Shown here in pieces: positions 23,729-43,107 of a stretch of 64,000 nt of DNA. The notes beneath the pieces were generated by a model. It was given only the letters and a program-made list of their open reading frames with translations. It ran no database searches and had not been told where the DNA came from. The translations under genes and the position numbers were made by a program. Location of the stretch: contig CAZEJU010000001.1 in the NCBI GenBank assembly GCA_964512695.1, positions 7,803 to 71,802 of the forward strand, given 5' to 3'. This stretch comes from an uncultured Gammaproteobacteria bacterium. GTDB taxonomy: Bacteria > Patescibacteriota > Microgenomatia > Levybacterales > UBA12049. Positions within the stretch are counted from its first letter, which is position 1, and every line of letters begins with the position of its first letter.

Positions 23729-23757
23729 TTGACAATAAGCAAAAAGTAGAGTATTAT
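23729..23757 (+). promoter_or_regulatory. sigma70-like promoter TTGACA-N17-TATTAT
   Basis: Read directly from the sequence; 17-nt spacer. Confidence 0.55.
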
Positions 23758-23770
23758 CGGATATAACGAT

Positions 23771-23821
23771 ATGCATTATATAAAAGTTGAAAACATGATG
23801 GCAATGATGATGACTTCCTAA
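23771..23821 (+). promoter_or_regulatory. Met-rich leader peptide ORF (MHYIKVENMMAMMMTS; five Met in the last eight codons)
   Basis: ATG CAT TAT ATA AAA GTT GAA AAC ATG ATG GCA ATG ATG ATG ACT TCC TAA begins ~7 nt after the predicted TSS. Its stop abuts an antiterminator arm, ggaggt at 23823-23828. Confidence 0.55.
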
Positions 23822-23852
23822 CGGAGGTGTATCACGTGCTGTTTGTGAACGA

Positions 23853-23875
23853 CCTCCTTACTAGGAGGTTTTTTT
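23853..23875 (+). terminator. intrinsic terminator CCTCCTtactAGGAGG + T7 (attenuator terminator; 3' arm doubles as SD)
   Basis: Perfect 6-bp GC-rich stem followed by seven T. The upstream ggaggt can alternatively pair with acctcc. Confidence 0.6.
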
Positions 23876-23886
23876 ATTGTAAAAAT

Positions 23887-24684
23887 ATGTTTGTGACCAT
23901 TATTAACGACTGTACAGATCATAACGTAATAGGAAGGCAACTAACCAGAGCAGCTGTCTTATTTTACGCGCCTGTTATTCCGGTTGGGGTTCACAACGAG
24001 TTAGAAGCTGCCGGAAACCTCATAGATGTTCTCGATGCTGCAGAAAAGGGAAAAGGAGTAATCATTCTGAATGTCGCACCCCGACATGGTAACGCGAAAA
24101 AGTGGCCGAATGGAACACCATTTGCGTACTTTAACGTCAATAATATACTTATTATAGCCACAATAGATGGCTACTCCTTGTCTCTTATAAAAAAACTCAG
24201 GATAATAGATTCCGTGAATCTCCTTGATATTCCTGATGTAGTTAACAGGATGCAAGAAGAACATGTCATTTCTTCAGAACTACGAGATCAAATCATTCAT
24301 ACGCAATTTCGAAGTTTCGAGTTCGCTCCCCGCGTAGCAAAGTGGCTGACCGAAAGAATAGAAATCCCCAGCACACCGTATGCTTTATCCCAAGTTCCTG
24401 ATGTACCAAAAGCTATATGGTATATCGATAATTTCGGAAACTGTAAAACCACACTCCTACCAGAAGATGTAAACTTCCAGGCAGGCAAAAAAGTTCATAC
24501 GGAATTAGGTGAGTTAGCTTGCTATAACAGATTAAAAGATGTCCCTGATGGAAAAACAGCTCTTATCATTGGTAGTTCAGGTTATAAAGATAAACGATTT
24601 ATCGAGTTAATAATCCAAGGTAAAAGCGCAGCACAGATATATGGTCTGCAAGTCGGATCATTAATCATAAATACTATTGGTTAA
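23887..24684 (+). CDS. SAM hydroxide adenosyltransferase family protein (DUF62; SalL/FlA fluorinase-chlorinase fold)
   Basis: N-terminal VTIINDCTD..; C-terminal IDNFGNCKTTL... closely parallels the fluorinase motif IDHPFGNVWTNI. Confidence 0.65.
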   Translation: MFVTIINDCTDHNVIGRQLTRAAVLFYAPVIPVGVHNELEAAGNLIDVLDAAEKGKGVIILNVAPRHGNAKKWPNGTPFAYFNVNNILIIATIDGYSLSLIKKLRIIDSVNLLDIPDVVNRMQEEHVISSELRDQIIHTQFRSFEFAPRVAKWLTERIEIPSTPYALSQVPDVPKAIWYIDNFGNCKTTLLPEDVNFQAGKKVHTELGELACYNRLKDVPDGKTALIIGSSGYKDKRFIELIIQGKSAAQIYGLQVGSLIINTIG

Positions 24685-24828: not shown

Positions 24829-25107
24829 AAGAATCAAGAGTGATGGGGAGACCCCAGTCTGATCTTCCTTTTCGCCTTAGTAGATTTCTACTTCGGCTTA
24901 AAGAGCGATCTTACCGGGGCGGGAGTTTTGGCTTCATGATCCATCCGGCAACCCTTCGGTAAGTTCAAACAATGCTTGAACAACGAGCAGGGTGCCAAAC
25001 CCAACCCAAGAGATGTGCTACCGAGTACATCTTCGTAAAGGAGGATTTGATCCTGAGACAATCGAAGGATAAACTATGTATTACCTCTCTTTACGAGAGG
25101 TTTTTTT
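24829..25107 (+). ncRNA. SAM-I (S-box) riboswitch with enlarged P3 and terminator expression platform
   Basis: Conserved S-box blocks AUCAAGAG (24833-40), CCGGCAACC (24945-53), GGUGCCAA (24981-88) and AGAGAUG. The P1 3' strand AAGAGA can alternatively pair with the UCUCUU 5' arm of the terminator 25084-25107. Confidence 0.6.
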
Positions 25108-25113
25108 ATTTAT

Positions 25114-28503: not shown

Positions 28504-28528
28504 GCACACATACTCTTAAGTTTAAATA

Positions 28529-28557
28529 TTGACAATTTATAATTGATCTGGTAAGAT
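28529..28557 (+). promoter_or_regulatory. sigma70-like promoter TTGACA-N17-TAAGAT
   Basis: Read directly from the sequence. Confidence 0.55.
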
Positions 28558-28569
28558 TATAAGACAAAT

Positions 28570-28620
28570 ATGCAACATACGTTTAATTCTATTATTGTCG
28601 TCCTTCTCGTTACCCATTAA
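28570..28620 (+). promoter_or_regulatory. branched-chain-amino-acid-rich leader peptide ORF (MQHTFNSIIVVLLVTH)
   Basis: ATG CAA CAT ACG TTT AAT TCT ATT ATT GTC GTC CTT CTC GTT ACC CAT TAA. Seven consecutive Ile/Val/Leu codons; near-leaderless. Confidence 0.55.
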
Positions 28621-28650
28621 TTGGGCGGAGGACTCGTGTTAAAAAACGTA

Positions 28651-28675
28651 CCCGCTCAAAGAAGCGGGTTTTTTT
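28651..28675 (+). terminator. intrinsic terminator CCCGCTcaaagaAGCGGG + T7
   Basis: Followed by the tiny ORF ATG TTT TAA, then the AAGGAG SD and the main ATG at 28697. Confidence 0.6.
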
Positions 28676-28696
28676 ATGTTTTAAAAGGAGAAATAT

Positions 28697-30556
28697 ATGA
28701 GTTCACATAAAGAATATGCAGGGCAAGCTGCTCTCAAATCCTTAGCTGAAAGATATATTAGAAGGTATGGCTTAAAAGCTGATTTTAATCCCGAAGAGAC
28801 AGGTGGAGTAATTTTCGCTCAAGACGGTACACCACTAAGGCAAGTCCGTGCTCCTTTCTGGAGAGCAGAAAAAGGTGCAAAGGGAACAGGCAGAAAAGAT
28901 ATGCCTAGAGTTTACACTGCTACAAATCCTGACCCGGATAAACCTAACTCAGGATTAGAATTAGAATTCCAAGCTTTCCATGCCATGACAGGAGAAATGG
29001 AACCAGTCATGGATGCAGACCACCCAGTACATCAGGGGTTATTGGAACACAATCGAAAAGCAAAAAATGGACACACTGAAAATAATGGAAATGGACTTGG
29101 AAACGGAAATGGGGTTAATGGATATGTTTTTGTAGAAGACGGCGCTGACTGGGACCATGACTTCCCAACTGGACCTAAAGAAGTAGGATTTAGCCCAGAG
29201 CTAACACGTCATACTTTGGAGGAAAACTTTCCTCCGAATGTAGATTCCGGAACACGAAACAGAGAGACATTATATGGTATTAGCACAGTTGTACAATTAG
29301 CAGAAGCAAATAACACACTTATCTCTCCGTTCTCGACTATACCGCATCGAGATATTACACAAATTGATACGAATCAACATCCATATGTCCAACGCATAGC
29401 GTTCGAACACATGGGTCCCGAAAAAGTTAAACACTTTACAGGTACTTCACTGCAAATTCACGTAGAAATCAAGGATTTAGAGTCAGCTTTACACGCTGCA
29501 AACCGTTGGCAGCTAGTTACACCTATTATGTATGCGGGAACACTTTCAGCACCTTTTATCGCAGGAGAAATAACACCCGATTTACAAGAACGGTATGGTC
29601 AAGTTCCCGACGTGGTTGGCGATCCACTAAAAGAAAGCACATTTGATACTATGACACAAGGACCCCATGAATCATATAGATATTATGGTAGATTAATAGG
29701 ATCACCTTCTGGAGGTGCAATGAGACAGCCTCTACCTGAAACATCTGAAGAATTTTGGTCTGCGGCTAATAATCTTCTAAAATCAGGAGAAAGTCCTTCC
29801 GTGGGTAGAGTAGCAGGACACCATGCAGATTTTCGTATTCGCCCTGACTTGGGACCGTATGGCACAATCGAGTTAGCAGTATTAGATACTGCCGGTGCGC
29901 GCATTCCAAATATCGTAGCCATTCAAGAATTCTCCAGAGCTTTGGGTTGGAAGTTACAGAGACAAGCAGGTAATTGGGAACAAATTATGGAAGATCCTCG
30001 TTTTAAATCGATATTCGGGCAAGCACCTTCTAAGGAAACATTCGAGACTGTTCACTGGAATACTATAGAGGTAGCAAAACATGGAAATAAGGCAATGATT
30101 ACTGGTATGGACGGAGAACAGCATTCTATAGCAGAGTTATGGAGTAAGTTAGTGGAATATGTACAAGAACCTATTGAAGAAACCGGTTATACTGGTTTAC
30201 CGGAAGGTATTATCGAGGTATTAGATAAAGCTTATCAAGACCCATCAGAACTATTTGATGTTTATAAAGACGAAAAAGGAGTTACTTCTGTCAAAGGATT
30301 CTATGAAACCGGAGTCGGAACTATGAGCCAGTGGGCCAGACAACGTGCAGAAGAGTTGAAAGCAAGAGGCTTAGCAGAAAAAGAAGCCATTATCGATACT
30401 ACACTTAATGTAGGCAAAAGCTTTCATGAACATGTAAAGTCAATGACACCCAAAGATCTTAATACTTTATATGTAAGCGCTAACAAGGATGTGGATAAAT
30501 CACCCCAATACAGCGCTAATGGTCAGAATCCATCATACCAAACCACTGCGTCCTAA
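28697..30556 (+). CDS. GCS2/YbdK-like carboxylate-amine ligase family protein
   Basis: Motif order parallels E. coli YbdK: GLELEFQAF; SLQIHVEI (GQHVHVG-like); HHADFRIRPDLGPYGTIELAVLDT (HWDIRP..GTVEVRVMDT-like). Confidence 0.5.
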   Translation: MSSHKEYAGQAALKSLAERYIRRYGLKADFNPEETGGVIFAQDGTPLRQVRAPFWRAEKGAKGTGRKDMPRVYTATNPDPDKPNSGLELEFQAFHAMTGEMEPVMDADHPVHQGLLEHNRKAKNGHTENNGNGLGNGNGVNGYVFVEDGADWDHDFPTGPKEVGFSPELTRHTLEENFPPNVDSGTRNRETLYGISTVVQLAEANNTLISPFSTIPHRDITQIDTNQHPYVQRIAFEHMGPEKVKHFTGTSLQIHVEIKDLESALHAANRWQLVTPIMYAGTLSAPFIAGEITPDLQERYGQVPDVVGDPLKESTFDTMTQGPHESYRYYGRLIGSPSGGAMRQPLPETSEEFWSAANNLLKSGESPSVGRVAGHHADFRIRPDLGPYGTIELAVLDTAGARIPNIVAIQEFSRALGWKLQRQAGNWEQIMEDPRFKSIFGQAPSKETFETVHWNTIEVAKHGNKAMITGMDGEQHSIAELWSKLVEYVQEPIEETGYTGLPEGIIEVLDKAYQDPSELFDVYKDEKGVTSVKGFYETGVGTMSQWARQRAEELKARGLAEKEAIIDTTLNVGKSFHEHVKSMTPKDLNTLYVSANKDVDKSPQYSANGQNPSYQTTAS

Positions 30557-30590: not shown

Positions 30591-31676
30591 ATGATTCAAC
30601 AAGAAAGGCTTCTAAAAACATTCTTCGATCTTGTTTCAATCGATAGTCCTACAGGTGAAGAAGAACGCATTCGTAACGAACTCTCAAATCGTTTGAAAAA
30701 ACTTGGCGCTGAAACAGTGGAAAAAGATACCTATGGTAACCTCATAGCGAAATTCCATGGTGAAGGTGAACCGCTCATGATTAACTGCCATATGGACACT
30801 GTAGAGCCCGGTAGAGGCATAGTACCAATTATGAAAGGTGATAGAGTAGAAACCGACGGGAAGACAATTCTAGCGGGTGATGCAAAGGCAGGTTTAGCGA
30901 TTATCCTCGAAGCCTTAACTTCACTAAAAGAAGAAAATAAAAAACATGTACCTATCGAAATCGTCTTTACTGTAGAGGAGGAAACTGGACTTTATGGAGC
31001 TGTTAACCTCGACTATTCAAAAGTCTCCGCAAAAAAAGGATTTGTTTTTGATGGTTCAAAAGATCCTTGTACCTTAACCACATCAGCACCGGGATATTAT
31101 AGAGTCGATGTTACAATCATAGGAAGAGCGGCTCATGCGGGAGCCGAACCTGAAAAAGGTATTTCAGCTATTAAAATCGCTTCTGATATTATTACGAAGC
31201 TCGAGGTAGGCAGAATTGATGAAGAAACTACGGCAAACGTCGGTATTATAGAAGGCGGAAGCGCCCGGAATGCAGTACCAGAAAAAGCACATTTTAAGGC
31301 AGAAATTCGAAGTAGAAAGCTAGAAAAGCTTGAAAAACATGCAGGTCATTTCCAAGAAGTTTTTGAGGAAGCGATGAAGAAACATCCTGAAGCGAAAATA
31401 GAGATAGACATGCATTTAGAATTTAATCCATATATTTTCGATGAAAACCATCATGTTATTCAGCTTGCGAGTAAAGCGTTAAGCGAACTAGGACAAACAC
31501 CGAAACTTGCACCTTCGAATGGAGGATCCGATGTCAATATTTTTATTTCACACGATATAGAAACAGTGGCTGTAGGAATTGGCGATTATAATGCTCATAC
31601 AACCCGCGAATACGTCGTCATATCTGAAATAGTGTTAGGAGCTAGACTCTGCGAAAAACTCCTTGAGGCGAAGTAA
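30591..31676 (+). CDS. M20 family peptidase, peptidase T (PepT)-like
   Basis: LLKTFFDLVSIDSPTGEE; metal-binding HMDTV, GAVN/DGS region and E-rich catalytic region. Paralog of 39896. Confidence 0.7.
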   Translation: MIQQERLLKTFFDLVSIDSPTGEEERIRNELSNRLKKLGAETVEKDTYGNLIAKFHGEGEPLMINCHMDTVEPGRGIVPIMKGDRVETDGKTILAGDAKAGLAIILEALTSLKEENKKHVPIEIVFTVEEETGLYGAVNLDYSKVSAKKGFVFDGSKDPCTLTTSAPGYYRVDVTIIGRAAHAGAEPEKGISAIKIASDIITKLEVGRIDEETTANVGIIEGGSARNAVPEKAHFKAEIRSRKLEKLEKHAGHFQEVFEEAMKKHPEAKIEIDMHLEFNPYIFDENHHVIQLASKALSELGQTPKLAPSNGGSDVNIFISHDIETVAVGIGDYNAHTTREYVVISEIVLGARLCEKLLEAK

Positions 31677-31759: not shown

Positions 31760-31788
31760 TTGACACGTCATTAACCTCATGGTAGAAT
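31760..31788 (+). promoter_or_regulatory. sigma70 promoter TTGACA-N17-TAGAAT
   Basis: Read directly from the sequence. Confidence 0.6.
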
Positions 31789-31794
31789 TACTAT

Positions 31795-32108
31795 AACATA
31801 CGAATAACAGCGTTGATCCAGTATGGATGGGACTGGGGATTCTCCTTCATTAAAGTTACGCAAGGAGAGCGCTGGGTCTAATCAACCCCGGAGGCGAAAC
31901 CGTAAAAAGATCAGCAACATGTGTCATAGCTGCAGATAAGCACTGATTAAAAGCTGATTCTCGCTGATATAGAGCATGTCATGAATGAGAAGTCCTCCCA
32001 CGCCAAAGCTCCGGAGGATAAAACAAGGTGGCACCGTCCTTAAATAAACGTGGGACCCTTGTAAATAACTACAAAGTAATTTTGTGGTTGTTTACAAGGG
32101 TTTTTTTA
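31795..32108 (+). ncRNA. T-box riboswitch leader (antiterminator AAGG-UGGCACC-GUCC; terminator + T7)
   Basis: AAGGUGGCACCGUCC (~32026-32040) matches the T-box consensus AGGGUGGNACCGCG, including the 7-nt UGGNACC bulge. The 3' strand GGACCCUUG overlaps the 5' arm of the terminator 32057-32108. A candidate Stem I spans GUUGAUC...GAUCAGCAAC. Confidence 0.5.
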
Positions 32109-32120
32109 ATGGTAAAAACT

Positions 32121-33278: not shown

Positions 33279-33307
33279 TTGACATTACACATGGGCTATC
33301 CTATAAT
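33279..33307 (+). promoter_or_regulatory. consensus sigma70 promoter TTGACA-N17-TATAAT
   Basis: Read directly from the sequence. Confidence 0.65.
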
Positions 33308-33314
33308 CATTTAT

Positions 33315-33371
33315 ATGATACGACAAGCAGTAAATTTCTTTTTCTTTTTTACCCCACTCGCGGGGAGGTAA
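33315..33371 (+). promoter_or_regulatory. Phe-rich leader peptide ORF (MIRQAVNFFFFFTPLAGR; five consecutive Phe codons)
   Basis: ATG ATA CGA CAA GCA GTA AAT TTC TTT TTC TTT TTT ACC CCA CTC GCG GGG AGG TAA. Leaderless. Its 3' end runs through the hairpin CCCCACUCGCGGGG, whose GCGGGG can alternatively pair with the CCCCGC of the terminator. Confidence 0.6.
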
Positions 33372-33398
33372 TTTCGTGATCACACGAAATACTCTATA

Positions 33399-33422
33399 CC
33401 CCGCATAAGGCGGGGTTTTTTT
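33399..33422 (+). terminator. intrinsic terminator CCCCGCataagGCGGGG + T7
   Basis: Directly followed by the ATG of the tiny ORF MEEFYGND, then the main start at 33436. Confidence 0.6.
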
Positions 33423-33435
33423 ATGGAGGAATTCT

Positions 33436-35136
33436 ATGGCAATGACTGAACAAGACATACTAAAAGGTACAATGAACGGCCGAGTTGATTCAGGTTTAAA
33501 GGCAACTGATAACACAGCAGTACCTTTAGGTGAACAATCTCATGGCGGCATAGTCCGAAATACCGATGGACTATGGTGGCTACCTGCCTCACCACATCGC
33601 GGAAGGGGTTTCGAATGGCAAGACTCAAAGGATCCTAGATATAACGCAACACATTTAAGTGAAGTTGGCTACCACCCTGAACCTCTAGAACCACAGAGAA
33701 CCGTAGAAGTATTAGCTGAACATTTACAAGAAAAAGTTGAAGGAAGAATTCCGGAAACAGAAACCCATGGAGTTGAAGTTGAAGGGACTACCTATGATCG
33801 AGAAGGCAATCTCTTAGCAATTCCTGTCGATCAGAAAACAAATCCCGAATTATTAGCTTCTACACATGAAGAAGCCACAAAACTGGAAAACGGACAGTAC
33901 CCGAGAAAACCATTTGAAATAGCTCGAGCAGTAGCCAGTGCAACCCAGCGGGGTATCGCAATCGCTGAAAATCATAGCGGAATACTTGTCCTCACAGAAG
34001 TACCAGAAGGTGGAACATTTCATGATGCTGAAAACAGTACATTTCCATATATAGTACGTCAACAAGGAAGAATTCGAAGACACGCATTAGCACACCTTGA
34101 TGAGATACCTGAAGAAACATGGGCTCTCTATCGACGTTACGGCGTAGATATTCGAGAACTACTGGAATCTAATAGACCGCTCAATTGGCCTACTCATGGA
34201 TTGCATCATCATGCCGGTGCGCCACAAATAGAAGGATTAGTCGACCCGAGAGCCGCACTGGTTATGGGAAAAATGCGTCAAACACTTTTTGCAAAATTAC
34301 TGCAATACCCAGCATTTAATAGCAGTAGATTATATGAAAAAGAAACTGATCTCCGCGGAGTCCGATCTGTCGCAAAACACGCGCTTGCTACAACAGTTAA
34401 TAATGATTTACCTGATAGTGCTGAAGAGCTAATGTGGGATGTGCAACGGGCAATGAGAGAGGGAGAAATCGCTACGCCTTCACGATATCCTTATAAAGGC
34501 CAACACGATGTCGTTCGATTTAGGATGGATGGAAAACATAAAACTGTCGAGTCTATTAAAGATCCTATGACACCTGACCTATTAACAGCGCTTCATCTCG
34601 TGTTCGGCAATCAACTCCTGGATACCATCGGCCAGCAAGCTCTCGTACAAGTAGGTGGAGATGAAAGCAAAGTTATGGGTTATTTACAATCTATACATCC
34701 TGAGCTTTTTGCCACATTGCCTTCATTAGGTCCTGAGTCATCACATAGTGCAGATATGCAGTTTAATAAAGCAGGGTATCTAGGAACATTCCGCGGGAAA
34801 ACTTATGCTGAGCTTATAAGAGATGCACGTGCTGTCGTGGAAGGGGTAGGCAAACATTATACAGCACTTGAGACACAAGCTAAAATTGTAAATCACGTAC
34901 TAGGATACCAAACAGATATTCCTCATCCACAGACTGATCTAGCAACATTTATGGGAATAAAAAATGGAGTTTACCAACCAAATAGTATGAGAGCAGGAAT
35001 TCTAACGGATTATAAAACGGGTATTCCTACAAATGAACTGTTAGTTGTCCAGGCTGAAGCAACGAAATTACAAGCTCAAGCTTTAGCACAAGTGAGAGAT
35101 GATAAAGATCTTCTCGAAGTGTATGGATTACAGTAA
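33436..35136 (+). CDS. GCS2/YbdK-like carboxylate-amine ligase family paralog
   Basis: THGLHHHAG and VVRFRMDGKHKTVESI align with the GxHVHVG and HWDIRP..GTVEVR motifs of the family. Paralog of 28697, 41323 and 56332. Confidence 0.4.
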   Translation: MAMTEQDILKGTMNGRVDSGLKATDNTAVPLGEQSHGGIVRNTDGLWWLPASPHRGRGFEWQDSKDPRYNATHLSEVGYHPEPLEPQRTVEVLAEHLQEKVEGRIPETETHGVEVEGTTYDREGNLLAIPVDQKTNPELLASTHEEATKLENGQYPRKPFEIARAVASATQRGIAIAENHSGILVLTEVPEGGTFHDAENSTFPYIVRQQGRIRRHALAHLDEIPEETWALYRRYGVDIRELLESNRPLNWPTHGLHHHAGAPQIEGLVDPRAALVMGKMRQTLFAKLLQYPAFNSSRLYEKETDLRGVRSVAKHALATTVNNDLPDSAEELMWDVQRAMREGEIATPSRYPYKGQHDVVRFRMDGKHKTVESIKDPMTPDLLTALHLVFGNQLLDTIGQQALVQVGGDESKVMGYLQSIHPELFATLPSLGPESSHSADMQFNKAGYLGTFRGKTYAELIRDARAVVEGVGKHYTALETQAKIVNHVLGYQTDIPHPQTDLATFMGIKNGVYQPNSMRAGILTDYKTGIPTNELLVVQAEATKLQAQALAQVRDDKDLLEVYGLQ

Positions 35137-35139
35137 GCT

Positions 35140-35982
35140 TTATTCTCCTGACCAGGACATGGCATTCATAGCTATTTGAGAATCCATATCCAAATTCTTC
35201 AAAGTAAGTGGCAGAAAAGATACATTACTTAATAAGACAGCTCGTTCTAAGGGGGTATTTTCCAGAATAGGAGCATACAGTCGTCCTTCAATACCATCTC
35301 GGACTTCCTTCACATTAACAGAATCAGTAACACCAACCACAGGTACTGTAATTGAGTGTTTTTCTATCTGTAAATATTTCGAGGGCCAGATAAGATCTGG
35401 ATTTTCACTATCTGAAACGAAAAACTGTCTACCATTCGCAGGAACTACTAAACCTGATACAGCAGGTCTGGTATCAAAACTCTGGCCTTCATCACCCCAT
35501 AACATCTCACGAATGTCCTGGTGTACGTAACCTCTTCCACCTGAAAGGAGCGCAGCGCCATTCGCGTTGGAATAGAGCAATCCGAATGCTATACCTATCT
35601 CATCTAATTCTATGGCAGCAGGGGATGCAGCACGCTCTGAAAGTGATAAAGAAGCAGTACGCATTTGTTGCATCTGACTTATAGCACCTCTATGCTTCTG
35701 CATAACCATTTCTCTAACAGATTCACGTTCTTTATTAAAAGCTGACCATGTAGCAGGGAGAACGTCTATATATGCAGTTATACCCAATTCTTCGCGAATT
35801 GTTTTCTCTAATGCAGCCACCCTATCCATAGCGATCAATCGCTCACGGTCAGCGTGGATACTAGCGCCAATATCCTTACCTGCCAGAGCTTTTAAATAAG
35901 CAGCATGATACTCAGCATATAACGTGCGTAGTTGTTGGGTGTAGATTTGCAGCAATCTCGAATTTTCTCTACGTTCTATCAT
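35140..35982 (-). CDS. hypothetical protein
   Basis: 280-aa ORF downstream of tRNA-Val(GAC) on the minus strand. Confidence 0.35.
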   Translation of the reverse strand: MIERRENSRLLQIYTQQLRTLYAEYHAAYLKALAGKDIGASIHADRERLIAMDRVAALEKTIREELGITAYIDVLPATWSAFNKERESVREMVMQKHRGAISQMQQMRTASLSLSERAASPAAIELDEIGIAFGLLYSNANGAALLSGGRGYVHQDIREMLWGDEGQSFDTRPAVSGLVVPANGRQFFVSDSENPDLIWPSKYLQIEKHSITVPVVGVTDSVNVKEVRDGIEGRLYAPILENTPLERAVLLSNVSFLPLTLKNLDMDSQIAMNAMSWSGE

Positions 35983-36100
35983 GGGTAATATTATATATTA
36001 TAGGATCTAATTCACACAAGCATACGGGTCGGTATTTTCCAGCACAGTTATTTATTAAGCAGTTTGTAATATTAGGAAGACTATTGTAGTTAGTAAAGTG

Positions 36101-36174
36101 TGGGGCCAAGTGGACTTGAACCACTGACCTTTTCAATGTCAATGAAACGCTCTAGCCAACTGAGCTATGGCCCC
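36101..36174 (-). tRNA. tRNA-Val (anticodon GAC)
   Basis: Acceptor GGGGCCA/UGGCCCC, D-loop AGUUGGCUA, anticodon loop UUGACAU, T-loop UUCAAGU, discriminator A. Confidence 0.8.
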
Positions 36175-36306
36175 ATTTTTTACAATCACCATTCTAACAA
36201 AATAGTACTTGTAAAACAATCTTTCTCGTTTTCTAGCATTGTTAATATTTTTACTGTATTTATTGACATAGCTTTATGACCTTCTGTTATACTATCTGCA
36301 TACTTA

Positions 36307-36900
36307 TTGGGGCAACAAATGACAAGATCTGAAGCATATACAATGCTTACAAAATATCTCCATAATAAAAACCTTATTAAGCATTGTCTTGCTGCTGAAG
36401 CGACAATGAAAGCTTTATATAAACGCCTGACTCCACAGCATGAACAAAACCCAGCAGATGAGGAAAAATGGGGGATTGTGGGACTCATGCATGATGCGGA
36501 TTATGAAATTGCACAACAGACAAACCAGCTTGATAAACATGGATTGTTACTCTTTGAAAAAGAACAGGGAACAATACCAGATGATATCGCGCATGCTATT
36601 AAATCTCACAATTTTTTAAACACGAGAGTAATGCCAGAGAATGCCATGGATTGGGCTATAGAAACATGTGATCAACTAACAGGGCTTATCGTCGCAGCCG
36701 CGCTCATCCACCCTGATAGAAAATTATCCTCACTAGATACACAATTCGTATTAAACCGATTTCACGAAAAATCATTTGCGAAGGGAGCAAAACGTGAGGC
36801 GATTATTCTCGCTGAAAAAAAGCTAGGGTTACAGCTAGAAGAATTCATAACAGTTACATTAAAGGCAATGCAAGGAATTAGTACAGAATTGGGATTGTAA
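36307..36900 (+). CDS. HD-domain phosphohydrolase
   Basis: H...HD motif (GLMHDADYE); ~190 aa. A TTGACA-N18-TATACT promoter lies upstream. Confidence 0.6.
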   Translation: MGQQMTRSEAYTMLTKYLHNKNLIKHCLAAEATMKALYKRLTPQHEQNPADEEKWGIVGLMHDADYEIAQQTNQLDKHGLLLFEKEQGTIPDDIAHAIKSHNFLNTRVMPENAMDWAIETCDQLTGLIVAAALIHPDRKLSSLDTQFVLNRFHEKSFAKGAKREAIILAEKKLGLQLEEFITVTLKAMQGISTELGL

Positions 36901-36930
36901 TTTATACTTTTATTCTCCATAATATTTTTA

Positions 36931-37152
36931 ATGTCTTCCGAAAAATATCATCATGTACATAAAGGAAAGATTGAGATTTTCATCAATAATTTTACAGGCG
37001 GAATTGCCTGGGGATTAGGAGCAAGTGTAGGTGTATCAATCCTATTTACGATTCTCGGTTTTATAGCAACTCAAGCAAATCTCGTTCCCTATATAGGAAC
37101 ATTTGTTTCACAAATTATCGACTTCGTGTTAAAACATAACAAACATTTTTAA
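36931..37152 (+). CDS. small membrane protein (73 aa)
   Basis: Two hydrophobic helices (GGIAWGLGASVGVSILFTILGFIA). Confidence 0.4.
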   Translation: MSSEKYHHVHKGKIEIFINNFTGGIAWGLGASVGVSILFTILGFIATQANLVPYIGTFVSQIIDFVLKHNKHF

Positions 37153-37163
37153 TAACTGCTGTA

Positions 37164-37192
37164 TTGACGAACTGTATGACTCATGGTATATT
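37164..37192 (+). promoter_or_regulatory. sigma70-like promoter TTGACG-N17-TATATT
   Basis: Read directly from the sequence. Confidence 0.55.
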
Positions 37193-37202
37193 GCTCAAAT
37201 AT

Positions 37203-37247
37203 ATGAAATCCACTTTTTTAGTTTGTTGTGTTACAACTCTGCTTTAA
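37203..37247 (+). promoter_or_regulatory. leader peptide ORF MKSTFLVCCVTTLL (tandem Cys-Cys, Thr-Thr, Leu-Leu)
   Basis: ATG AAA TCC ACT TTT TTA GTT TGT TGT GTT ACA ACT CTG CTT TAA. Its stop abuts GGGG of the antiterminator, which pairs with CCCC of the terminator. Confidence 0.45.
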
Positions 37248-37274
37248 GGGGTTGTAGTTATCGTGGAATATGCA

Positions 37275-37296
37275 CCCCGCCAAGCGGGGTTTTTTT
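37275..37296 (+). terminator. intrinsic terminator CCCCGCcaaGCGGGG + T7 directly abutting the start codon
   Basis: 6-bp GC stem, 3-nt loop, 7 T, then ATG at 37297. Confidence 0.6.
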
Positions 37297-38289
37297 ATGA
37301 GAAACTTATTAGAATTAGGAATTTTCGAAACATACGGAAATGGTGGAGGAGCAATTACCAAAGATAGAGTATCTCCTCCTATTTATCCAGTAGATGCTAA
37401 TTTAGGTGAATGGAGGATACTAGCAACTGATCATGAAAGAGAATTCCCGGGCGAGCATCTCGAACGTGCTTTTGAAGTGATAAAGCAATGGCAGGAAGTA
37501 TTTCCTCGGGAAGATACCTGGATTAATCGTGCGTATGGTATTCCGTCACCGATTATTAAACTCGATGCAACAATTACTAATAATGAATTACAGGTGTATG
37601 AAGTAGAAGATAGACCAGCAGGAATGGGTTATAGCGAATTAATAAATCCTGACTTACGAACAAATTTTGCTGATATTGTATCTACTTGGCCAGATTTCCG
37701 AGTCGTCGTTTCTCCTCAAAGATCTGGAAATGACGATCATTTATGGGCAAAGCCAGCAGAAGCAGATTGGCATGGTCTAGTTCTCGTCCGGGCAGAACCG
37801 TCTGAAGAAGAATTCCATGCATTACAGCGAAGATCCATAAGTACTCTGCTTACAGAAGGAGACAAATCGTATGGTGAAAAAATGGGTTTATGGAAAAGAG
37901 TTCATACAGCAGATGAGATAGATTTTTCACAAGGTTTTGTCGTCAAGCCCACCCAAGGAAGCAAAGGGAATGGTGTGTATGTATCTTTACCGAAACAATA
38001 CATGAAAGAACATGGGATCGACCCAGGTAGAAATGGCGTAGCTACTGCAGGGAAAATACGAGGTGTAATCGATACTGCAGCAGCAAATGGAGGAGTCTTC
38101 GTACAACAATATCATCCTCCTATGGAAACAGGTATCCCGACCCATCCCTGGGCAGTAAACCGGTTATTCTTCGGGTATGATATGCAAAATGGAGAATGGA
38201 GATATATAGGGGGAACATGGAATGCTCGAAATAATTTGAAAATTCATGGAGCTAGTGATACATTAACTGGCCCGTTAAAAACGGTATAA
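37297..38289 (+). CDS. ATP-grasp-like protein
   Basis: FVVKPTQGSKGNGVYVS and ELQVYEVEDRPAGMG motifs, though in an unusual order. Start placed after the terminator T-run. Confidence 0.35.
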   Translation: MRNLLELGIFETYGNGGGAITKDRVSPPIYPVDANLGEWRILATDHEREFPGEHLERAFEVIKQWQEVFPREDTWINRAYGIPSPIIKLDATITNNELQVYEVEDRPAGMGYSELINPDLRTNFADIVSTWPDFRVVVSPQRSGNDDHLWAKPAEADWHGLVLVRAEPSEEEFHALQRRSISTLLTEGDKSYGEKMGLWKRVHTADEIDFSQGFVVKPTQGSKGNGVYVSLPKQYMKEHGIDPGRNGVATAGKIRGVIDTAAANGGVFVQQYHPPMETGIPTHPWAVNRLFFGYDMQNGEWRYIGGTWNARNNLKIHGASDTLTGPLKTV

Positions 38290-38346
38290 AAAAAATTGAT
38301 TAGATTTTACTTCACTTACCCTCGGTTCGTAAACGTAAATGCTCTC

Positions 38347-38376
38347 TTGACGTCCAAATAGATATAACTCTATAAT
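38347..38376 (+). promoter_or_regulatory. sigma70-like promoter TTGACG-N18-TATAAT
   Basis: Read directly from the sequence. Confidence 0.55.
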
Positions 38377-38390
38377 ACAAAGTGTTCTAT

Positions 38391-38438
38391 ATGAATATCA
38401 TGAATAACAATGGAGCAGTAAAGAAGAACCTCTCGTAA
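38391..38438 (+). promoter_or_regulatory. Asn-rich leader peptide ORF (MNIMNNNGAVKKNLS; 5 Asn, including NNN)
   Basis: ATG AAT ATC ATG AAT AAC AAT GGA GCA GTA AAG AAG AAC CTC TCG TAA. The 3' end overlaps the hairpin CCUCUCguaaGAGGGG, whose 3' arm can pair with the CCCCUUAC of the terminator. Confidence 0.55.
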
Positions 38439-38469
38439 GAGGGGTCTTTCTGTTGTCTGCACAATAGTA

Positions 38470-38492
38470 CCCCTTACAGAAGGGGTTTTTTT
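38470..38492 (+). terminator. intrinsic terminator CCCCTTacagAAGGGG + T7
   Basis: Followed by the tiny ORF MDFLLNQ (38493-38516), then a ~100-nt spacer carrying a GGAGG SD before the 38616 start. Confidence 0.6.
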
Positions 38493-38615
38493 ATGGATTT
38501 TTTGCTGAACCAATAGTTCTACTTAGAAATCCAAATCCTCCAAAAAGCGCTCTTCGAGCCGCAGTTCAAATGAACTAAAGCGGAAAGGAAGCTTAGGAGG
38601 ACAAAGCTTTACATT

Positions 38616-39899
38616 ATGAAAGAAGGACTAAAAGTATTATCACACTCATCTATAGAGGAATATCTATTCGATACTGATGTCGAAGACCGATATTATATTC
38701 CGTGGCGTGCAGCCGCAGAAGCAGCAGCAAGAATCGAACTAGGACAACAAGTTTTGACAATCCTTCCAAAACGTGAAGCTTTTAACGAATACCTCACCCT
38801 TTTACAAATGAAATTACTGGGAGGAAGAAGTATTCCAACGCTGTTTACACCTGATGAAGATTATCTTATGGATACTGATATTAAAAAATATCTTATGGAT
38901 ACTCTTCGTGGCAGATTTAACAGAAGTACCACTATTCATCCCTATCAAGCAACACCTGAATTTTATGATTGGGCGGGGGAGTTAGAACAGAAAGGCGTTA
39001 AAATTTACGCAGATAGAAAACGCAAAGACTTACGTGACTGGTGGGGACATAAAGGAGCATATCATCGATGGATAGATGATCTCGATACTCCCACTCAATT
39101 TGAAGGATTACATTTACCAATACCTCGAGGATACGTGGCTCAAAACCATGGAGAATTACTTGTAGCGAAAAAACTTCTACCAACTGACACTGTTGTGGCA
39201 AAACCAATTTTCGGAGCTGGTGGATTTCAAATAGAGTTCTTAGACGACGATAATATCGATACATATGAATGGCCTACCGACCCCACAACGGAAAAACCCA
39301 TGCCAGTTGCTGTACAAGAAAGACTAAGAATTGGTCGAGATGAATTCGGCGAACGTGTTTTTTCCTACCAGTTTGAGGGCCCACAACCAATGGGACGATT
39401 AACACGACAAATTATGGATCAGGAAACTGGGAAAGTCTGGAGTGGGAATAGAGTACCAGCAGATGTTACACCTGAGTTTGAACGAAGAGCAAAGGATGTA
39501 GTTCATACTTTAGTCATGAAAACAAAACCAAAAGGAGACGGGGGAGTCGATATAGCAGATGTAGATGGAGAACCAGTAATCATCGAAGTAAACGGAGGAA
39601 GGCCAACTGGCGCACATATGCCGAAACGATTTCAACAAGCCTTCGCGCCTGAAGCTCCACATTTCGTATTTCAGAAAGTAGAACCAAACGGATATTCACC
39701 ATTCGATATTTGGGATAGACTCGAAGGAGGAAACTTGCCTCGCACGAATGAAACTCTAGTATTTCAGCGTGAAAGACAACGCGGGGTTTTTCCATTAGTT
39801 TGGTTACCGAACTCTTGGGGAATGCTTGCAAGCTTCGGAGGATCATTCGAAGAAGCAAATAATCAGTTACTCGCAGCTCGTGATAGAATAGGCGTATGA
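38616..39899 (+). CDS. ATP-grasp ligase family protein
   Basis: VVAKPIFGAGGFQIEF (central domain) and EPVIIEVNGGRPTGAHMP (C-domain E.N.RP motif) in canonical order. Confidence 0.5.
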   Translation: MKEGLKVLSHSSIEEYLFDTDVEDRYYIPWRAAAEAAARIELGQQVLTILPKREAFNEYLTLLQMKLLGGRSIPTLFTPDEDYLMDTDIKKYLMDTLRGRFNRSTTIHPYQATPEFYDWAGELEQKGVKIYADRKRKDLRDWWGHKGAYHRWIDDLDTPTQFEGLHLPIPRGYVAQNHGELLVAKKLLPTDTVVAKPIFGAGGFQIEFLDDDNIDTYEWPTDPTTEKPMPVAVQERLRIGRDEFGERVFSYQFEGPQPMGRLTRQIMDQETGKVWSGNRVPADVTPEFERRAKDVVHTLVMKTKPKGDGGVDIADVDGEPVIIEVNGGRPTGAHMPKRFQQAFAPEAPHFVFQKVEPNGYSPFDIWDRLEGGNLPRTNETLVFQRERQRGVFPLVWLPNSWGMLASFGGSFEEANNQLLAARDRIGV

Positions 39900-40966
39900 C
39901 TGAGAAAAGGGTAGTACAAATATTTTTCGATTTAGTAAAAATTGACAGCCCTTCTGGACATGAAGAGAACGTTTTAGAGTATATAGAAGCATATTGCAAA
40001 AAACTCTCACTAAATACACAGAGGGATTCTTATGGAAACCTCATCGTTAAAAAAGAAGGAGTAGGTGAACCACTACTTCTCTGTTCACATGCCGATACAG
40101 TAGAACCAGGGAAAAATATTCAACCACGAATAGAGAACGGAATTATAAAAAGCGATGGTACGACGATACTTGGTGCTGATAATAAATCGTCTATTGCAGC
40201 GATTCTCGAGGCTGTGAAACAATTAGTTGAAGAAAAAAAACACCATAGGCCTCTAGAGCTTGTGTTTACAAAATCTGAAGAAGTTGCTAGCTGGGGAGCA
40301 GTATATCTGGACTACAAACAACTTCAAGCAAAAGAAGGATATACGATAGATAACGCAAATCCTGTAGGAACAATTGTCTACGCGTCTCCTTTTTACTATC
40401 GTTTCGATATTACAGTATTCGGTAAAGATGCCCATGCTTCAAGACCGCATGAAGGAATTCATGCTTTAAAAATCGCTGCAAGCGCCATTCATAAAATAAA
40501 ACTTGGAAAAATTGATACAAATACACTTGCCAATATCGGCATGATCCAATCAGGCCATGTACGCAACACAATTCCAGGTTCAGTAGTGCTTATGGGAGAA
40601 GTACGAAGCTATTCCGATGAGAAAGCTCAAAGGTACTTAAACAAAATTATTGATACATTTAGAAAAACTGCAGAAAAAACGGGAGGATCTATAACGTACG
40701 AAACGCTGAAAGAAAATGCTGGGTATATATATAAAACAAATGATCCCTTTGTAAAAAAAACGATGCAGATTATGAAAAAGATTGGAGTAGAAACGAACTT
40801 AATTAAAACTCTGGGCTGTGCCGATGCAAATGTGATCCAAGAGCATGGAATTAAAATGCTCGACCTGGGCGACGGCTCACGCAGAGCGCATACACTAAAG
40901 GAGTCAATACCGGTAGCACAGTTACAAAGAGTCGTTGAGCTAGTATTAGCTCTTGCTGGAGCATAA
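39896..40966 (+). CDS. M20 family peptidase, PepT-like (paralog of 30591)
   Basis: VVQIFFDLVKIDSPSGHEE; HADTVEPG metal site. Overlaps the stop of 38616 by 4 nt, so the two are translationally coupled. Confidence 0.7.
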   Translation: MTEKRVVQIFFDLVKIDSPSGHEENVLEYIEAYCKKLSLNTQRDSYGNLIVKKEGVGEPLLLCSHADTVEPGKNIQPRIENGIIKSDGTTILGADNKSSIAAILEAVKQLVEEKKHHRPLELVFTKSEEVASWGAVYLDYKQLQAKEGYTIDNANPVGTIVYASPFYYRFDITVFGKDAHASRPHEGIHALKIAASAIHKIKLGKIDTNTLANIGMIQSGHVRNTIPGSVVLMGEVRSYSDEKAQRYLNKIIDTFRKTAEKTGGSITYETLKENAGYIYKTNDPFVKKTMQIMKKIGVETNLIKTLGCADANVIQEHGIKMLDLGDGSRRAHTLKESIPVAQLQRVVELVLALAGA

Positions 40967-41067
40967 AACCATACACTCTTCACCCTCCCTTTTCGAATTT
41001 ACGTGAACACTTCCCGAGGTTTGAATAGAAACCAACCTCCCAGGTTGGCAACTAGTAATTTGAGGAC

Positions 41068-41097
41068 TTGCTTAAGGGAGCGTTTATGCGATATACT
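41068..41097 (+). promoter_or_regulatory. sigma70-like promoter TTGCTT-N18-TATACT
   Basis: Read directly from the sequence. Confidence 0.45.
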
Positions 41098-41106
41098 TTC
41101 TTCAAC

Positions 41107-41154
41107 ATGAGTAAATCAGTTTTCGGAACTACCACTACAACAACCCTTTCCTAA
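41107..41154 (+). promoter_or_regulatory. Thr-rich leader peptide ORF (MSKSVFGTTTTTTLS; six consecutive Thr codons)
   Basis: ATG AGT AAA TCA GTT TTC GGA ACT ACC ACT ACA ACA ACC CTT TCC TAA. Its stop abuts GGGAGGUUG (41155-63), which pairs with CAACCUCC (41180-87), the 5' arm of the terminator. Confidence 0.6.
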
Positions 41155-41182
41155 GGGAGGTTGGCGTGGTATTATTTAACAA

Positions 41183-41204
41183 CCTCCTTAATAGGAGGTT
41201 TTTT
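41183..41204 (+). terminator. intrinsic terminator CCTCCTtaatAGGAGG + T6
   Basis: Perfect 6-bp stem plus a T-run. A ~118-nt spacer follows before the 41323 start. Confidence 0.55.
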
Positions 41205-41322
41205 ATTGGGGAGAACACGTATCCGTCAGCTGAGGGATACCACGATAGAATCCCATGGATTATTGCATGGAATCCTATCGCCCCGGTGTACGTCAGGACT
41301 GAAAGCTGACCACAAATAACAT

Positions 41323-43107
41323 ATGACAAACGAACAAGAACTAAAAATAGGAGGACAAAAATCAGCGACGAAAGTTGATTTCGCTCATGCTGAGCATCCT
41401 TTAACCCATGCACGTCTTTATGAAGCAGTAGAAGAACGACGTGGTACCGTAGGTCCTGTAGGAGATGTTCCCAGAGCATATATAAGGGACTCTGCAACTG
41501 CGGCAATTATAGTAAGCACACCTTCAAAAGAGGTGGTTGCTGCTGTTCGATCACCTCTATGGATTCCTAGTGGTGTACGAAATGGAAGAGTAGAATTTGG
41601 TGGAAGACCAGATAAAGATCATATCGAATTTTCTTACTTACGTGAAACTGATTGGGAGTATGTAAAAGAATCTGCGAGGAAAAGATTAGACGCACTTAAA
41701 AAAGCCACAAAACTTAACGAATTTGTTGCTGAGCATGGAGGCTATCTCGGTATAGGAACAGAGCCGGAAGCATTTCTCCTTCATGAAGATGGCAGTGTCG
41801 TACAGATAAACGCTGGAGAGTCATTTTTAGGCCAGAGAGAAGACGCTCTGCCACCGATAGCGACACCCAGAGAGTATGCCCGCGCACGAGCGGAACTTAT
41901 TCAAAATCGAAGACAGCAATTACAGGCTGGTCAAATTGCCTTCGACGGCTCAGTTCGACCTACGGGGAAGATGAGCGAAACAAGAATAACCCAAGAAGGT
42001 GATGAAGCAATATATAATGTAGCTATCACGCAAGCGCTCCATACACGATACACCCATTGTGCAGATCCATTAACACGACAAATCATGGATCAGCTTGCTA
42101 AAACAGAAAACTATAGAGATTTTGACGAAATCTATAATCATGCTTCAACGATAACATACTGGGGTCCTCCCTCTGCATCGCATGCAGCTATAGGAATGCA
42201 TCAAAGACGCGAAAATGGGACAACCTTTGTACCAGAATGGGAAGCAGTAGCTCATGCAGATGTCATAAATAGCGATTTCGCAACTGCTGATGAACTACTG
42301 ATGATGTCAACGCCAGTCATATTCGGAGAACAACCTCAAGTTTTACATAAAGGTACATGGAGAAAACCACGCGACTATCGTCATTTTATGCGACATGTCG
42401 TTGACACTACCTATCCAGCACCTTTTGTCGGCTCGCCAGAAGCATTACGAGCAAATGTTACCGACAGTATACTCTCCGGCAGATCGCACACACTTGATAG
42501 ATCTGCATATACTGCAGATGTACATGGTTTATTAGTCCCTAACTATCATGGAAGAGTACGGATTAGACAAAAGGTTGATGTTACTCATAAAGGAGAAATT
42601 AAACAATCATGCCGTATAGAAGAAACAGGATGTTCACAGTCCGCATCTTTACCTGATGAATTGGCAAGAAATGCACTTATGCAGCTTAGAGCTGTTGCTG
42701 TCGACGAAGCCCTCGCAGCAGGTATGCATCCCTCTGAATTCTATAAAGAGAAATATCCGCATATGACAACTTGGCAAAAGCAGCAAGATATCGTACTCCA
42801 TGCAAATCTCTATGGTTTCCGACATCCTTTACCATCTGCTGTGATAATGGAAAATATTAGGCTTGTACGAGATATCGGTAAGAGATATCCTGTACTCGGT
42901 CTTCAAGCCGTACTCGCAGAAACACGCTTGAGAAATTTATTTGATGATCCAGCACGCTCTTTAGAAGTTTATGAACAAAAACCTATTGGTCCATTTAGCG
43001 AAGTTCTCCAGAATGAATTACATAATGGTACTTCACCTGTAGAACTCGCTCAAAAAGTAGCCGCTTACCAGGATACAGTAGCGGAAAAGATATTAAGAGT
43101 TCCATAG
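41323..43107 (+). CDS. GCS2/YbdK-like carboxylate-amine ligase family paralog
   Basis: EPEAFLLHED, SHAAIGMHQ and HGRVRIRQKVDVTHKGEI align with the family motifs, weakly. Lies immediately upstream of thrS. Confidence 0.35.
   Translation: MTNEQELKIGGQKSATKVDFAHAEHPLTHARLYEAVEERRGTVGPVGDVPRAYIRDSATAAIIVSTPSKEVVAAVRSPLWIPSGVRNGRVEFGGRPDKDHIEFSYLRETDWEYVKESARKRLDALKKATKLNEFVAEHGGYLGIGTEPEAFLLHEDGSVVQINAGESFLGQREDALPPIATPREYARARAELIQNRRQQLQAGQIAFDGSVRPTGKMSETRITQEGDEAIYNVAITQALHTRYTHCADPLTRQIMDQLAKTENYRDFDEIYNHASTITYWGPPSASHAAIGMHQRRENGTTFVPEWEAVAHADVINSDFATADELLMMSTPVIFGEQPQVLHKGTWRKPRDYRHFMRHVVDTTYPAPFVGSPEALRANVTDSILSGRSHTLDRSAYTADVHGLLVPNYHGRVRIRQKVDVTHKGEIKQSCRIEETGCSQSASLPDELARNALMQLRAVAVDEALAAGMHPSEFYKEKYPHMTTWQKQQDIVLHANLYGFRHPLPSAVIMENIRLVRDIGKRYPVLGLQAVLAETRLRNLFDDPARSLEVYEQKPIGPFSEVLQNELHNGTSPVELAQKVAAYQDTVAEKILRVP

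Follow-up and report, generated by a model that had tools for sequence, protein, structure and literature searches.

What controls a gene whose initiation codon stands directly behind the U-run of an intrinsic terminator? This question is raised by the gene at 37297..38289 in a stretch of 64,000 nucleotides (nt; hereafter the window, positions 7,803 to 71,802 of the forward strand of contig CAZEJU010000001.1, assembly GCA_964512695.1), from an organism named as an uncultured Gammaproteobacteria bacterium and placed by GTDB in Patescibacteriota; Microgenomatia; Levybacterales; UBA12049. The gene, which codes for a 330-amino acid (aa) protein with a predicted ATP-grasp fold, is preceded at 37164-37296 by a complete unit extending from promoter through terminator, as can be read directly from the sequence. 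The features of this unit, their conservation in orthologs and the modeling of RNA folding suggest that it is probably a ribosome-mediated transcription attenuator of the trp/his/thr type, with a tandem pair of cysteine codons in a short leader open reading frame (ORF) as the likely sensor. All the elements described in this region by an initial annotation of the DNA are present, the span that it gave for the leader being that of the whole unit and not that of the ORF:

37164..37192, + strand: sigma-70-type promoter with -35 element TTGACG (37164-69), 17-nt spacer, extended -10 TG (37184-85) and -10 element TATATT (37187-92)
37203..37247, + strand: leader ORF MKSTFLVCCVTTLL, 14 codons followed by UAA (37245-47)
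37209..37213, + strand: 5' strand of an outer helix, UCCAC, paired with GUGGA (37263-37267) in the minimum free energy (MFE) structure
37224..37229, + strand: UGU UGU, the two adjacent Cys codons (8 and 9) proposed as the sensor
37231..37240, + strand: segment 1, UUACAACUCU, in codons 10-13, which pairs with segment 2
37248..37257, + strand: segment 2, GGGGUUGUAG, beginning directly after UAA, which pairs with segment 1 or segment 3
37263..37267, + strand: 3' strand of the outer helix, GUGGA, in the MFE structure
37271..37280, + strand: segment 3, UGCACCCCGC, the antiterminator partner of segment 2 and the 5' arm of the terminator
37274..37296, + strand: intrinsic terminator ACCCCGC-CAA-GCGGGGU plus U7 (stem 37274-90, U7 37290-96), with 7 base pairs (bp), 6 of them G-C, and a 3-nt loop
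37284..37289, + strand: segment 4, GCGGGG, the 3' arm of the terminator, 7 nt before the gene AUG
37297..38289, + strand: the regulated gene for the 330-aa ATP-grasp-fold protein, with an N-terminus, MRN, that is conserved in an ortholog of 77% identity

The promoter matches the consensus at 10 of 12 positions, in addition to its TG extension, and is the second of 16 promoter-like sites in a scan of 35000-41500. As its -10 element ends 10 nt before the leader ATG, the predicted 5' untranslated region would be about 3-4 nt long, and no Shine-Dalgarno (SD)-like sequence is found in the 20 nt before this ATG at 37203. In the same scanned region 15 terminator-like sites are observed as against 4.5 expected. 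Cysteine makes up 0.4% of the 7191 residues in the proteins of the window, among which there is no CC dipeptide. The gene ATG is the base immediately after U7, which is the start originally proposed, and the MRN that it encodes is also kept in the closest ortholog (contig L006, see below). Segment 4 is the only SD-like sequence of this gene and presumably serves as such. Terminators in this genome carry a tail of fixed form, U7-AUG: the sequence GGTTTTTTTATG occurs five times in the window (at 28667, 33414, 37288, 38484 and 56323; 0.02 expected), so that the junction between U-run and AUG is in part the local terminator consensus. Its AUG is a gene start only at 37297 and 56332; those at 28676 and 38493 open tiny ORFs of 2 and 7 codons respectively, and that at 33423 is out of frame with the gene and overlaps the SD of the latter (AUGGAGG).

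Certain other coding assignments within the unit were considered and ruled out. A longer ORF from the ATG at 37176 (MTHGILLKYMKST..) would start inside the promoter spacer, and the ATG at 37270 (MHPAKRGFFM.., the choice of the ORF lister) lies inside the terminator and is not conserved, the L006 protein starting with MRN. Similarly, AAGGGG does not qualify as the SD of a hidden start, the closest in-frame AUG being 18-22 nt off, and neither does its counterpart in L006, where an AUG abuts GGAGG and is then followed by a stop codon.

Folding of 37199-37296 yields an MFE structure of -25.7 kcal/mol, which contains the outer helix, a hairpin formed by segments 1 and 2 and the terminator. The 1:2 hairpin has 10 bp and carries the stop codon in its loop. 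Alternatively, segment 2 can pair with segment 3, GGGG with CCCC (37275-78) and UGUA with UGCA (37271-74), the calculated energy being -11.5 kcal/mol when treated as a duplex and -9.9 kcal/mol when treated as a hairpin. The 1:2, 2:3 and 3:4 pairings are mutually exclusive and change in a coordinated manner between orthologs. The alternative pairing of AAGGGG put forward in the initial annotation is hence right in substance, but it is the whole of GGGGUUGUAG that pairs, either with UUACAACUCU (37231-40) or with UGCACCCC (37271-78). A terminator/antiterminator expression platform with an SD sequestered in the terminator might also belong to a small-molecule riboswitch, in which case the ORF would be incidental. 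Such a riboswitch is extremely improbable here: searches with Rfam, at gathering thresholds for the whole window and at E up to 10 for the local region, recovered only tRNAs and noise, the best local cis-regulatory match being Trp_leader (RF00513), whose 13.6 bits (E 7.4) fall short of the threshold of 41, and the related loci gave no Rfam matches. Moreover, the sequence upstream of segment 2 comprises only about 45 nt, all of them part of the ORF, and this stretch varies freely among orthologs while keeping the start, the frame and a Trp or Cys codon. As for T-boxes, neither the T-box sequence with its UGGN bulge nor a Stem I specifier is present in 37164-37296.

The coordinated change is best seen in the closest ortholog, P0002 on contig L006, with 77% identity to the 330-aa protein. 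Its gene order is that of the window, namely DUF5665, the ortholog of the 330-aa protein and ATP-grasp_3. Its promoter, TTGACT-17-TATAGT, is at the corresponding place and is followed after 7 nt by the leader ORF MKSTGTICCTTTLF, which has 14 codons like that of the window and retains UGU UGU unchanged. The two leaders differ in 8 codons, 3 of these differences being synonymous third-position changes, and the Thr-Thr of the window corresponds to Thr-Thr-Thr. The L006 ORF is followed by UAAGGAGGAUGUAG, in which segment 2 is GGAGGAUGUAG, matching the changes in the terminator, which reads ACCUCCUA-AC-UAGGAGGU, U9 and then AUG. Thus segments 2, 3 and 4 have changed all three together, from GGGG/CCCC/GGGG in the window to GGAGG/CCUCC/GGAGG in L006, and the outer helix takes the form AAUCCAC:GUGGAUU. 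Segment 4 of L006 (UAGGAGGU) is a perfect SD (AGGAGG), 9 nt before the AUG. The conserved length and frame of the ORF, the exclusive and co-changing pairings, a stop codon that adjoins segment 2 and a gene start that follows the U-run all support the leader-peptide attenuator which had been proposed for this locus.

The same organization extends to more distant orthologs, which were surveyed on the contigs of P0003, P0005 and P0007 and on 53 metagenome loci from a family-alignment search, scanned for terminators and then read. Those relatives that come from reference genomes are in bins of Doudnabacteria, Saccharibacteria, Paceibacterota and Moraniibacteriota, and it is on their taxonomy that the placement of the source organism in the candidate phyla radiation is based. 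About 25 distant orthologs (26-48% identity) share the layout with a terminator directly upstream of the gene; at these loci a strong promoter, 60-130 nt before the gene, ends 6-14 nt before an SD-less ATG that opens a leader ORF of 17-32 codons. At every such locus a segment at or just before the stop codon copies the 3' arm of the terminator, whatever the sequence of the latter (CCUCCC, CCGCGG, CGCCGCC, AAUCGGUC, AACCGAUCUC and others). As the terminators are out of register in a MAFFT alignment of nine leaders (A2), this relationship was evaluated by a permutation test on cognate versus non-cognate duplexes and not by formal counting of pairs: cognate 2:3 duplexes have a mean of -17.8 kcal/mol versus -10.1 kcal/mol for non-cognate ones, and none of 20000 permutations reached the observed mean. 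Furthermore, the lengths of related leaders differ in multiples of 3 (87/90, 90/93 and 96/99 nt).

Some of these loci show additional peculiarities. Tandem Trp-type leader-terminator units occur upstream of the ortholog in L008 (4667-5003), L029 (1023-1434), L035 (725-1150) and L052 (1024-1432), with the AUG of the second leader in L008 located 10 nt after the U-run of the first terminator. Versions of the gene coding for 450-460 aa, from Doudnabacteria and Saccharibacteria bins (L001, around 300-400, and L002, around 3290-3390), are without a leader ORF and share another conserved 5' element, GCGGCRCAC...CCUGGCAGGGA...GUGCGCC, for which there is no Rfam match at gathering thresholds.

A unit with its own promoter, a strong terminator and a transcript of about 95 nt might be thought to make an independent small RNA or a small hydrophobic peptide with a function of its own (e.g. 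a precursor for the ATP-grasp enzyme), the terminator merely setting the stoichiometry. In Sinorhizobium, attenuator RNAs and leader peptides are indeed reported to act in trans (PMC6614838, PMC7298713). Nevertheless, this explanation is very improbable for the unit studied here: the gene has no separate promoter, its AUG abutting the U-run, and the peptide is not conserved except for Trp or Cys, with C-terminal halves that shift frame between L029b and L035b. Nor would a mere terminator need the coordinated change of segments 2 and 3. A precursor of a ribosomally synthesized and post-translationally modified peptide, or a carrier peptide, is ruled out by the same absence of conservation and frame shifts in the C-terminal part among relatives, and by the absence of Asp and Glu from the 14 residues. 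In graspetides (microviridin-type), the cross-links made by ATP-grasp enzymes are between the side chains of Thr, Ser or Lys and those of Asp or Glu.

What then is sensed? An in-frame Trp codon is present in 16 of 19 non-redundant leaders, as compared to a mean of 3.8 and a maximum of 10 in nucleotide shuffles. There is usually exactly one Trp per leader, with an aromatic or hydrophobic residue before it, and the peptides otherwise share little. The three leaders without Trp are those of the window and L006, each with Cys-Cys, and that of L024 (MKKLTSFSTSCMCCMSR), with CMCC. The L024 protein is closest to those of L016, L018 and L019 (46-47%), all of which have Trp leaders, and the next relatives of the window after L006 (L007-L009 and L011) likewise carry Trp leaders; hence a change from Trp to Cys has seemingly occurred twice. 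A single substitution converts UGG into UGU. In the alignment of nine leaders the UGU UGU of the window falls in the columns of the Trp codon of L008a, L007 and L012, and also in those of the Phe, Thr and Met runs of other leaders in the window (sister leaders, below). When the enzymes behind Cys-type leaders (window, L006 and L024) were searched for residues specific to them, 3 columns emerged, which is within the range of 0-5 obtained with control triples. Thus, the conservation of a codon pair among orthologs, which had been suggested as a check, holds for Cys in L006 and in the independent lineage of L024, but most orthologs have Trp instead.

A single conserved Trp after aromatic residues, as in most orthologous leaders, is more like what is seen in arrest peptides than like a run of codons. 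It is therefore conceivable that the ORF senses a free ligand by nascent-peptide arrest in the manner of TnaC, or else the overall translation capacity. This is improbable, as the Trp or Cys lies anywhere from 1 to about 17 codons before the stop codon, conservation extends to no other residue, the leader in question is itself without Trp and the sister leaders are plain runs of one amino acid.

The placement of the codons relative to the RNA segments provides a further clue in favor of a stalling-dependent attenuator. In a masking model, the 3' edge of the ribosome was set 15 nt past the first base in the peptidyl (P) site, and the RNA made before segment 4 was folded. With codons 3-6 in the aminoacyl (A) site, the model predicts formation of the 1:2 hairpin, which would leave the terminator free to form. 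With any of codons 7-11 (GUU UGU UGU GUU ACA; V-C-C-V-T) in the A site the 2:3 antiterminator is predicted, codon 12 allows a weaker one, and with codons 13-15 (CUG CUU UAA) segment 2 is covered and the antiterminator absent. In this model Cys-Cys is at the center of the stall-competent window, with Thr11 inside it and Leu-Leu outside. The corresponding window is T-I-C-C-T-T-T for L006 and ENMMAMMM, SIIVVLLVT and FGTTTTTT for sister leaders; for the Phe leader only the downstream boundary is defined by the model, shortly behind the FFFFF run. The match between these windows and the codon runs of the sister leaders supports the masking model.

These geometric relationships suggest the following mechanism. 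Transcription would start a few bases before the AUG of the 14-codon SD-less ORF. If translation proceeds smoothly, the ribosome at UAA would cover segment 2, the 3:4 terminator would fold and transcription would stop at U7. Without translation of the ORF, segment 1 would pair with segment 2 and the terminator would form again. If instead the ribosome stalls with one of codons 7-11 in the A site, segment 1 would be covered and segment 2 free, so that 2:3 could pair and no terminator would arise. When Cys-tRNA is scarce the likely stall site would be the tandem UGU UGU, whereby the unit would respond to Cys supply. There might also be a second layer of control: in read-through RNA the SD-like GCGGGG of segment 4 would be unpaired, and as a result the 330-aa gene would be both transcribed and translatable.

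The regulatory residue was at first regarded as ambiguous between Cys, Thr and Leu. This ambiguity is now narrowed in that Leu-Leu falls outside the modeled stall window and Cys-Cys is both central and conserved, but Thr11 lies inside it. An attenuator of the same kind might thus sense Thr, or Cys and Thr together, multivalent sensing of this sort being known from the E. coli thr leader, which senses Thr plus Ile. Consistent with this, the Thr-Thr of the window and the Thr-Thr-Thr of L006 are conserved, and Thr12 is at the border of the stall window. However, ACA ACU is segment 1 itself (UUACAACUCU), so that base pairing already explains the conservation of the Thr codons, and these may be a by-product of the RNA structure. 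Also, the ThrRS operon of this genome is preceded by a six-Thr leader of its own, the independent Cys-type leader of L024 (..SCMCCMSR) has no Thr beside its Cys codons, and in the alignment the Cys codons rather than the Thr codons are in register with the regulatory runs of the sister leaders. Hence, sensing of Thr, alone or jointly with Cys, appears unlikely.

Several observations weigh against a Cys-responsive attenuator. First, on the comparative side, there is only one close relative of the 330-aa protein, P0002, the next being at most 48% identical and all metagenomic, and leader ORFs at the other loci were chosen by eye. As most orthologs have Trp at the place of Cys-Cys, the enzyme family as such does not dictate which residue is sensed, and the connection of the enzyme to Cys metabolism is a matter of fold resemblance only (TM-score about 0.5). 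Second, with regard to the RNA, the z-score of the MFE is only -1.9, with 4 of 200 shuffles folding equally well; the antiterminator is weak (-11.5 kcal/mol), the cognate segment 3 of the window ranking only 11th of 24 in the cross-comparison; and for a ribosome at codons 1-2 two folds of almost equal energy result from the model. Third, the leader has two Cys codons as against 5-7 regulatory codons in the sister leaders, Thr11 shares the stall window, and translation of the leader would depend on a leaderless or near-leaderless start, given the lack of an SD. These points notwithstanding, the attenuator with Cys-Cys as sensor remains the probable explanation.

The product of the regulated gene matched no family in Pfam and NCBIfam searches, including the Pfam ATP-grasp model. 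An AlphaFold model of the 330-aa protein, built with 16 homologs, has a mean predicted local distance difference test score (pLDDT) of 86 and a predicted template modeling score (pTM) of 0.84. In a Foldseek search of the PDB with this model the best match was glutathionylspermidine synthetase (2io7; E 6e-7, TM 0.51, probability 1.0), and further matches at probability 1.0 were the glutathione-synthetase-type structures 5oet and 1m0w and the putative gamma-glutamylcysteine synthetase 3k1t; D-Ala-D-Ala ligase, RimK and LysX were ranked lower. The predicted structure and these matches thereby bear out the earlier description of the gene as ATP-grasp-like. The nearest folds among them are those of thiol-peptide ligases, a loose resemblance in the model that would fit a Cys sensor. 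In L008 and L009 an M20 peptidase gene directly follows the ortholog.

The unit does not stand alone. There are at least six leader-peptide units within 20 kb when it is included, and the other five, also on the + strand, are as follows:

23730-23890, + strand: unit with the Met-rich leader MHYIKVENMMAMMMTS (start 23771), before a gene of the S-adenosylmethionine (SAM) hydrolase / SAM hydroxide adenosyltransferase type
28527-28700, + strand: unit with the Ile/Val/Leu leader MQHTFNSIIVVLLVTH (start 28570), before genes for a 619-aa YbdK/GCS2-like ligase and an M20 peptidase
33279-33440, + strand: unit with the Phe leader MIRQAVNFFFFFTPLAGR (start 33315), before the gene for a 566-aa protein of no known family
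38347-38620, + strand: unit with the Asn-rich leader MNIMNNNGAVKKNLS (start 38391), before genes for ATP-grasp_3 and a PepT-like M20 peptidase
41060-41325, + strand: unit with the Thr-rich leader MSKSVFGTTTTTTLS (start 41107), before the gene for a 594-aa protein, followed by ThrRS and IF3

Each of these sister units has a promoter, an ORF without an SD and a terminator. The link between amino acid and gene is clearer for the Met leader (SAM hydrolase-type gene) and the Thr leader (ThrRS operon). The Asn-rich leader is also conserved in L006 (window 38391-38495, L006 1574-1675; VKKNLS common to both); its stop codon lies in the GUAA loop of a strong hairpin, and the masking model places its window on GAVKKN and not on the Asn run.

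Other putative leaders in the window appear to be of a different type. At 31761-32111 a promoter is followed by a leader of about 330 nt ending in AAGG-UGGCACC-GUCC...GGAC-CCUU, which is T-box-antiterminator-like and includes the 7-nt bulge UGGNACC. Overlapping with this element is a long terminator (32056-32108), behind which come U7, A and the ATG at 32109 of a DUF3182 (ATP-grasp-like) gene; the Rfam T-box model gave no match to this element even at E up to 10. At 55880-56072 there is a partial, sub-threshold T-box match (28.6 bits, E 1.4e-4), truncated where the searched stretch begins, then a terminator (56076-56094) and a second element, GAGG-UGGUACC-ACGG, at about 56117-56131. A long hairpin ending in GGGACGG-U7 lies directly before the ATG at 56332 of a gene for a GCS2-family ligase, and the region 55880-56334 may thus comprise tandem T-box-like leaders. 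A further long leader (24900-25113), with no obvious ORF containing an amino acid run, has a terminator at 25083-25101 plus U7 before a 584-aa gene (ATG 25114), the product of which is a paralog (26% identity) of the 594-aa protein behind the Thr leader. The M20 peptidases encoded at 30591-31676 and 39896-40966 are also paralogs (37% identity), and each follows a different ligase gene with a different leader. The combination of ligase and M20 peptidase looks like a repeated two-gene module, which is seen in L008 and L009 as well.

Taken together, these contexts raise the tentative possibility, on balance somewhat doubtful, that bacteria of the candidate phyla radiation possess a ribulon, in which near-leaderless leaders tuned to particular amino acids (Met, Ile/Val/Leu, Phe, Cys, Thr and one Asn-rich), along with T-box-like elements, switch on uncharacterized genes, the sensor codon for the family of the 330-aa protein having switched twice independently from Trp to Cys. 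In this tentative scheme the targets might be carboxylate-amine ligases (ATP-grasp, YbdK/GCS2-like and DUF3182) paired with M20 peptidases. If true, this would point to an unknown system for amino acid salvage or buffering in organisms thought unable to make amino acids. Leader-peptide attenuation is found mainly in Proteobacteria, Actinobacteria and a few Firmicutes, almost always before biosynthetic operons. Here the leaders are in a reduced and probably host-dependent lineage, upstream of enzymes without known function, and each leader could therefore supply a functional label ("induced when amino acid X is short") for unannotated genes. The switch from Trp to Cys in orthologs would imply that the sensed amino acid is easily changed by one UGG-to-UGU substitution. 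Thus the wider pattern, with many amino acid-specific leaders before uncharacterized ligase and peptidase genes and switching of sensor codons, is a more interesting lead than the single unit. In the literature searched there was no report of leader peptides in Patescibacteria or the candidate phyla radiation, and none of a Cys-type leader on an intrinsic terminator in a genome of this radiation, upstream of a non-biosynthetic enzyme.

In its organization the unit is reminiscent of E. coli trpL, hisL, thrL and pheL, which likewise have a short ORF with codons for the sensed residue, four segments and an intrinsic terminator. As in these classical leaders, the ribosome at the stop codon would cover segment 2, and the sensor codons are just 5' of or within segment 1. 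There is, however, no sequence relation to them, and the unit differs in its SD-less ORF a few bases from the predicted 5' end, in a terminator 3' arm that would double as SD, and in a gene AUG abutting the U-run. Further, the regulated gene is not a recognized biosynthetic gene and the host is of the candidate-phyla-radiation type.

The Trp-codon leaders of the orthologs (L007-L060) precede genes of the same family and share the promoter, the SD-less ORF, a segment 2 that copies the terminator arm and the terminator. They differ in having a single UGG as sensor, ORFs that in many cases have more codons (17-32) and continue across segment 2, and much stronger antiterminators (-15 to -28 kcal/mol versus -11.5 kcal/mol in the window).

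With respect to Cys sensing, the initial annotation regarded a Cys-responsive attenuator as fitting the codons but rarely reported. The codons do fit, yet Cys-responsive leader ORFs have been demonstrated experimentally in mycobacteria (10.1101/834739). In Actinobacteria, Cys-rich leader ORFs had been predicted, with no terminators found (PMC1262725), and those of Mycobacterium smegmatis are leaderless Cys-responsive translational attenuators (the 'Cys ribulon'; Canestrari et al., 10.1101/834739). For the leaderless short ORFs of mycobacteria, a response to Cys was reported to require no more than two such codons in succession (10.1101/834739). The leader described here resembles these polycysteine ORFs in its consecutive Cys codons and, judging from promoter spacing, probably also in being leaderless or near-leaderless. 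The SD-like GCGGGG (AGGAGG in L006), predicted to be freed in the 2:3 form, would be a further parallel, one of mechanistic resemblance and not of membership. The genes downstream are those of Cys metabolism in mycobacteria and an uncharacterized ATP-grasp enzyme here, and there is no homology between the systems. Unlike the mycobacterial case studied in detail, which is translational and in which no terminator hairpins were found, the main switch in the unit described here would be a canonical intrinsic terminator; a Cys attenuator of this kind would complement the translational Cys attenuators of mycobacteria.

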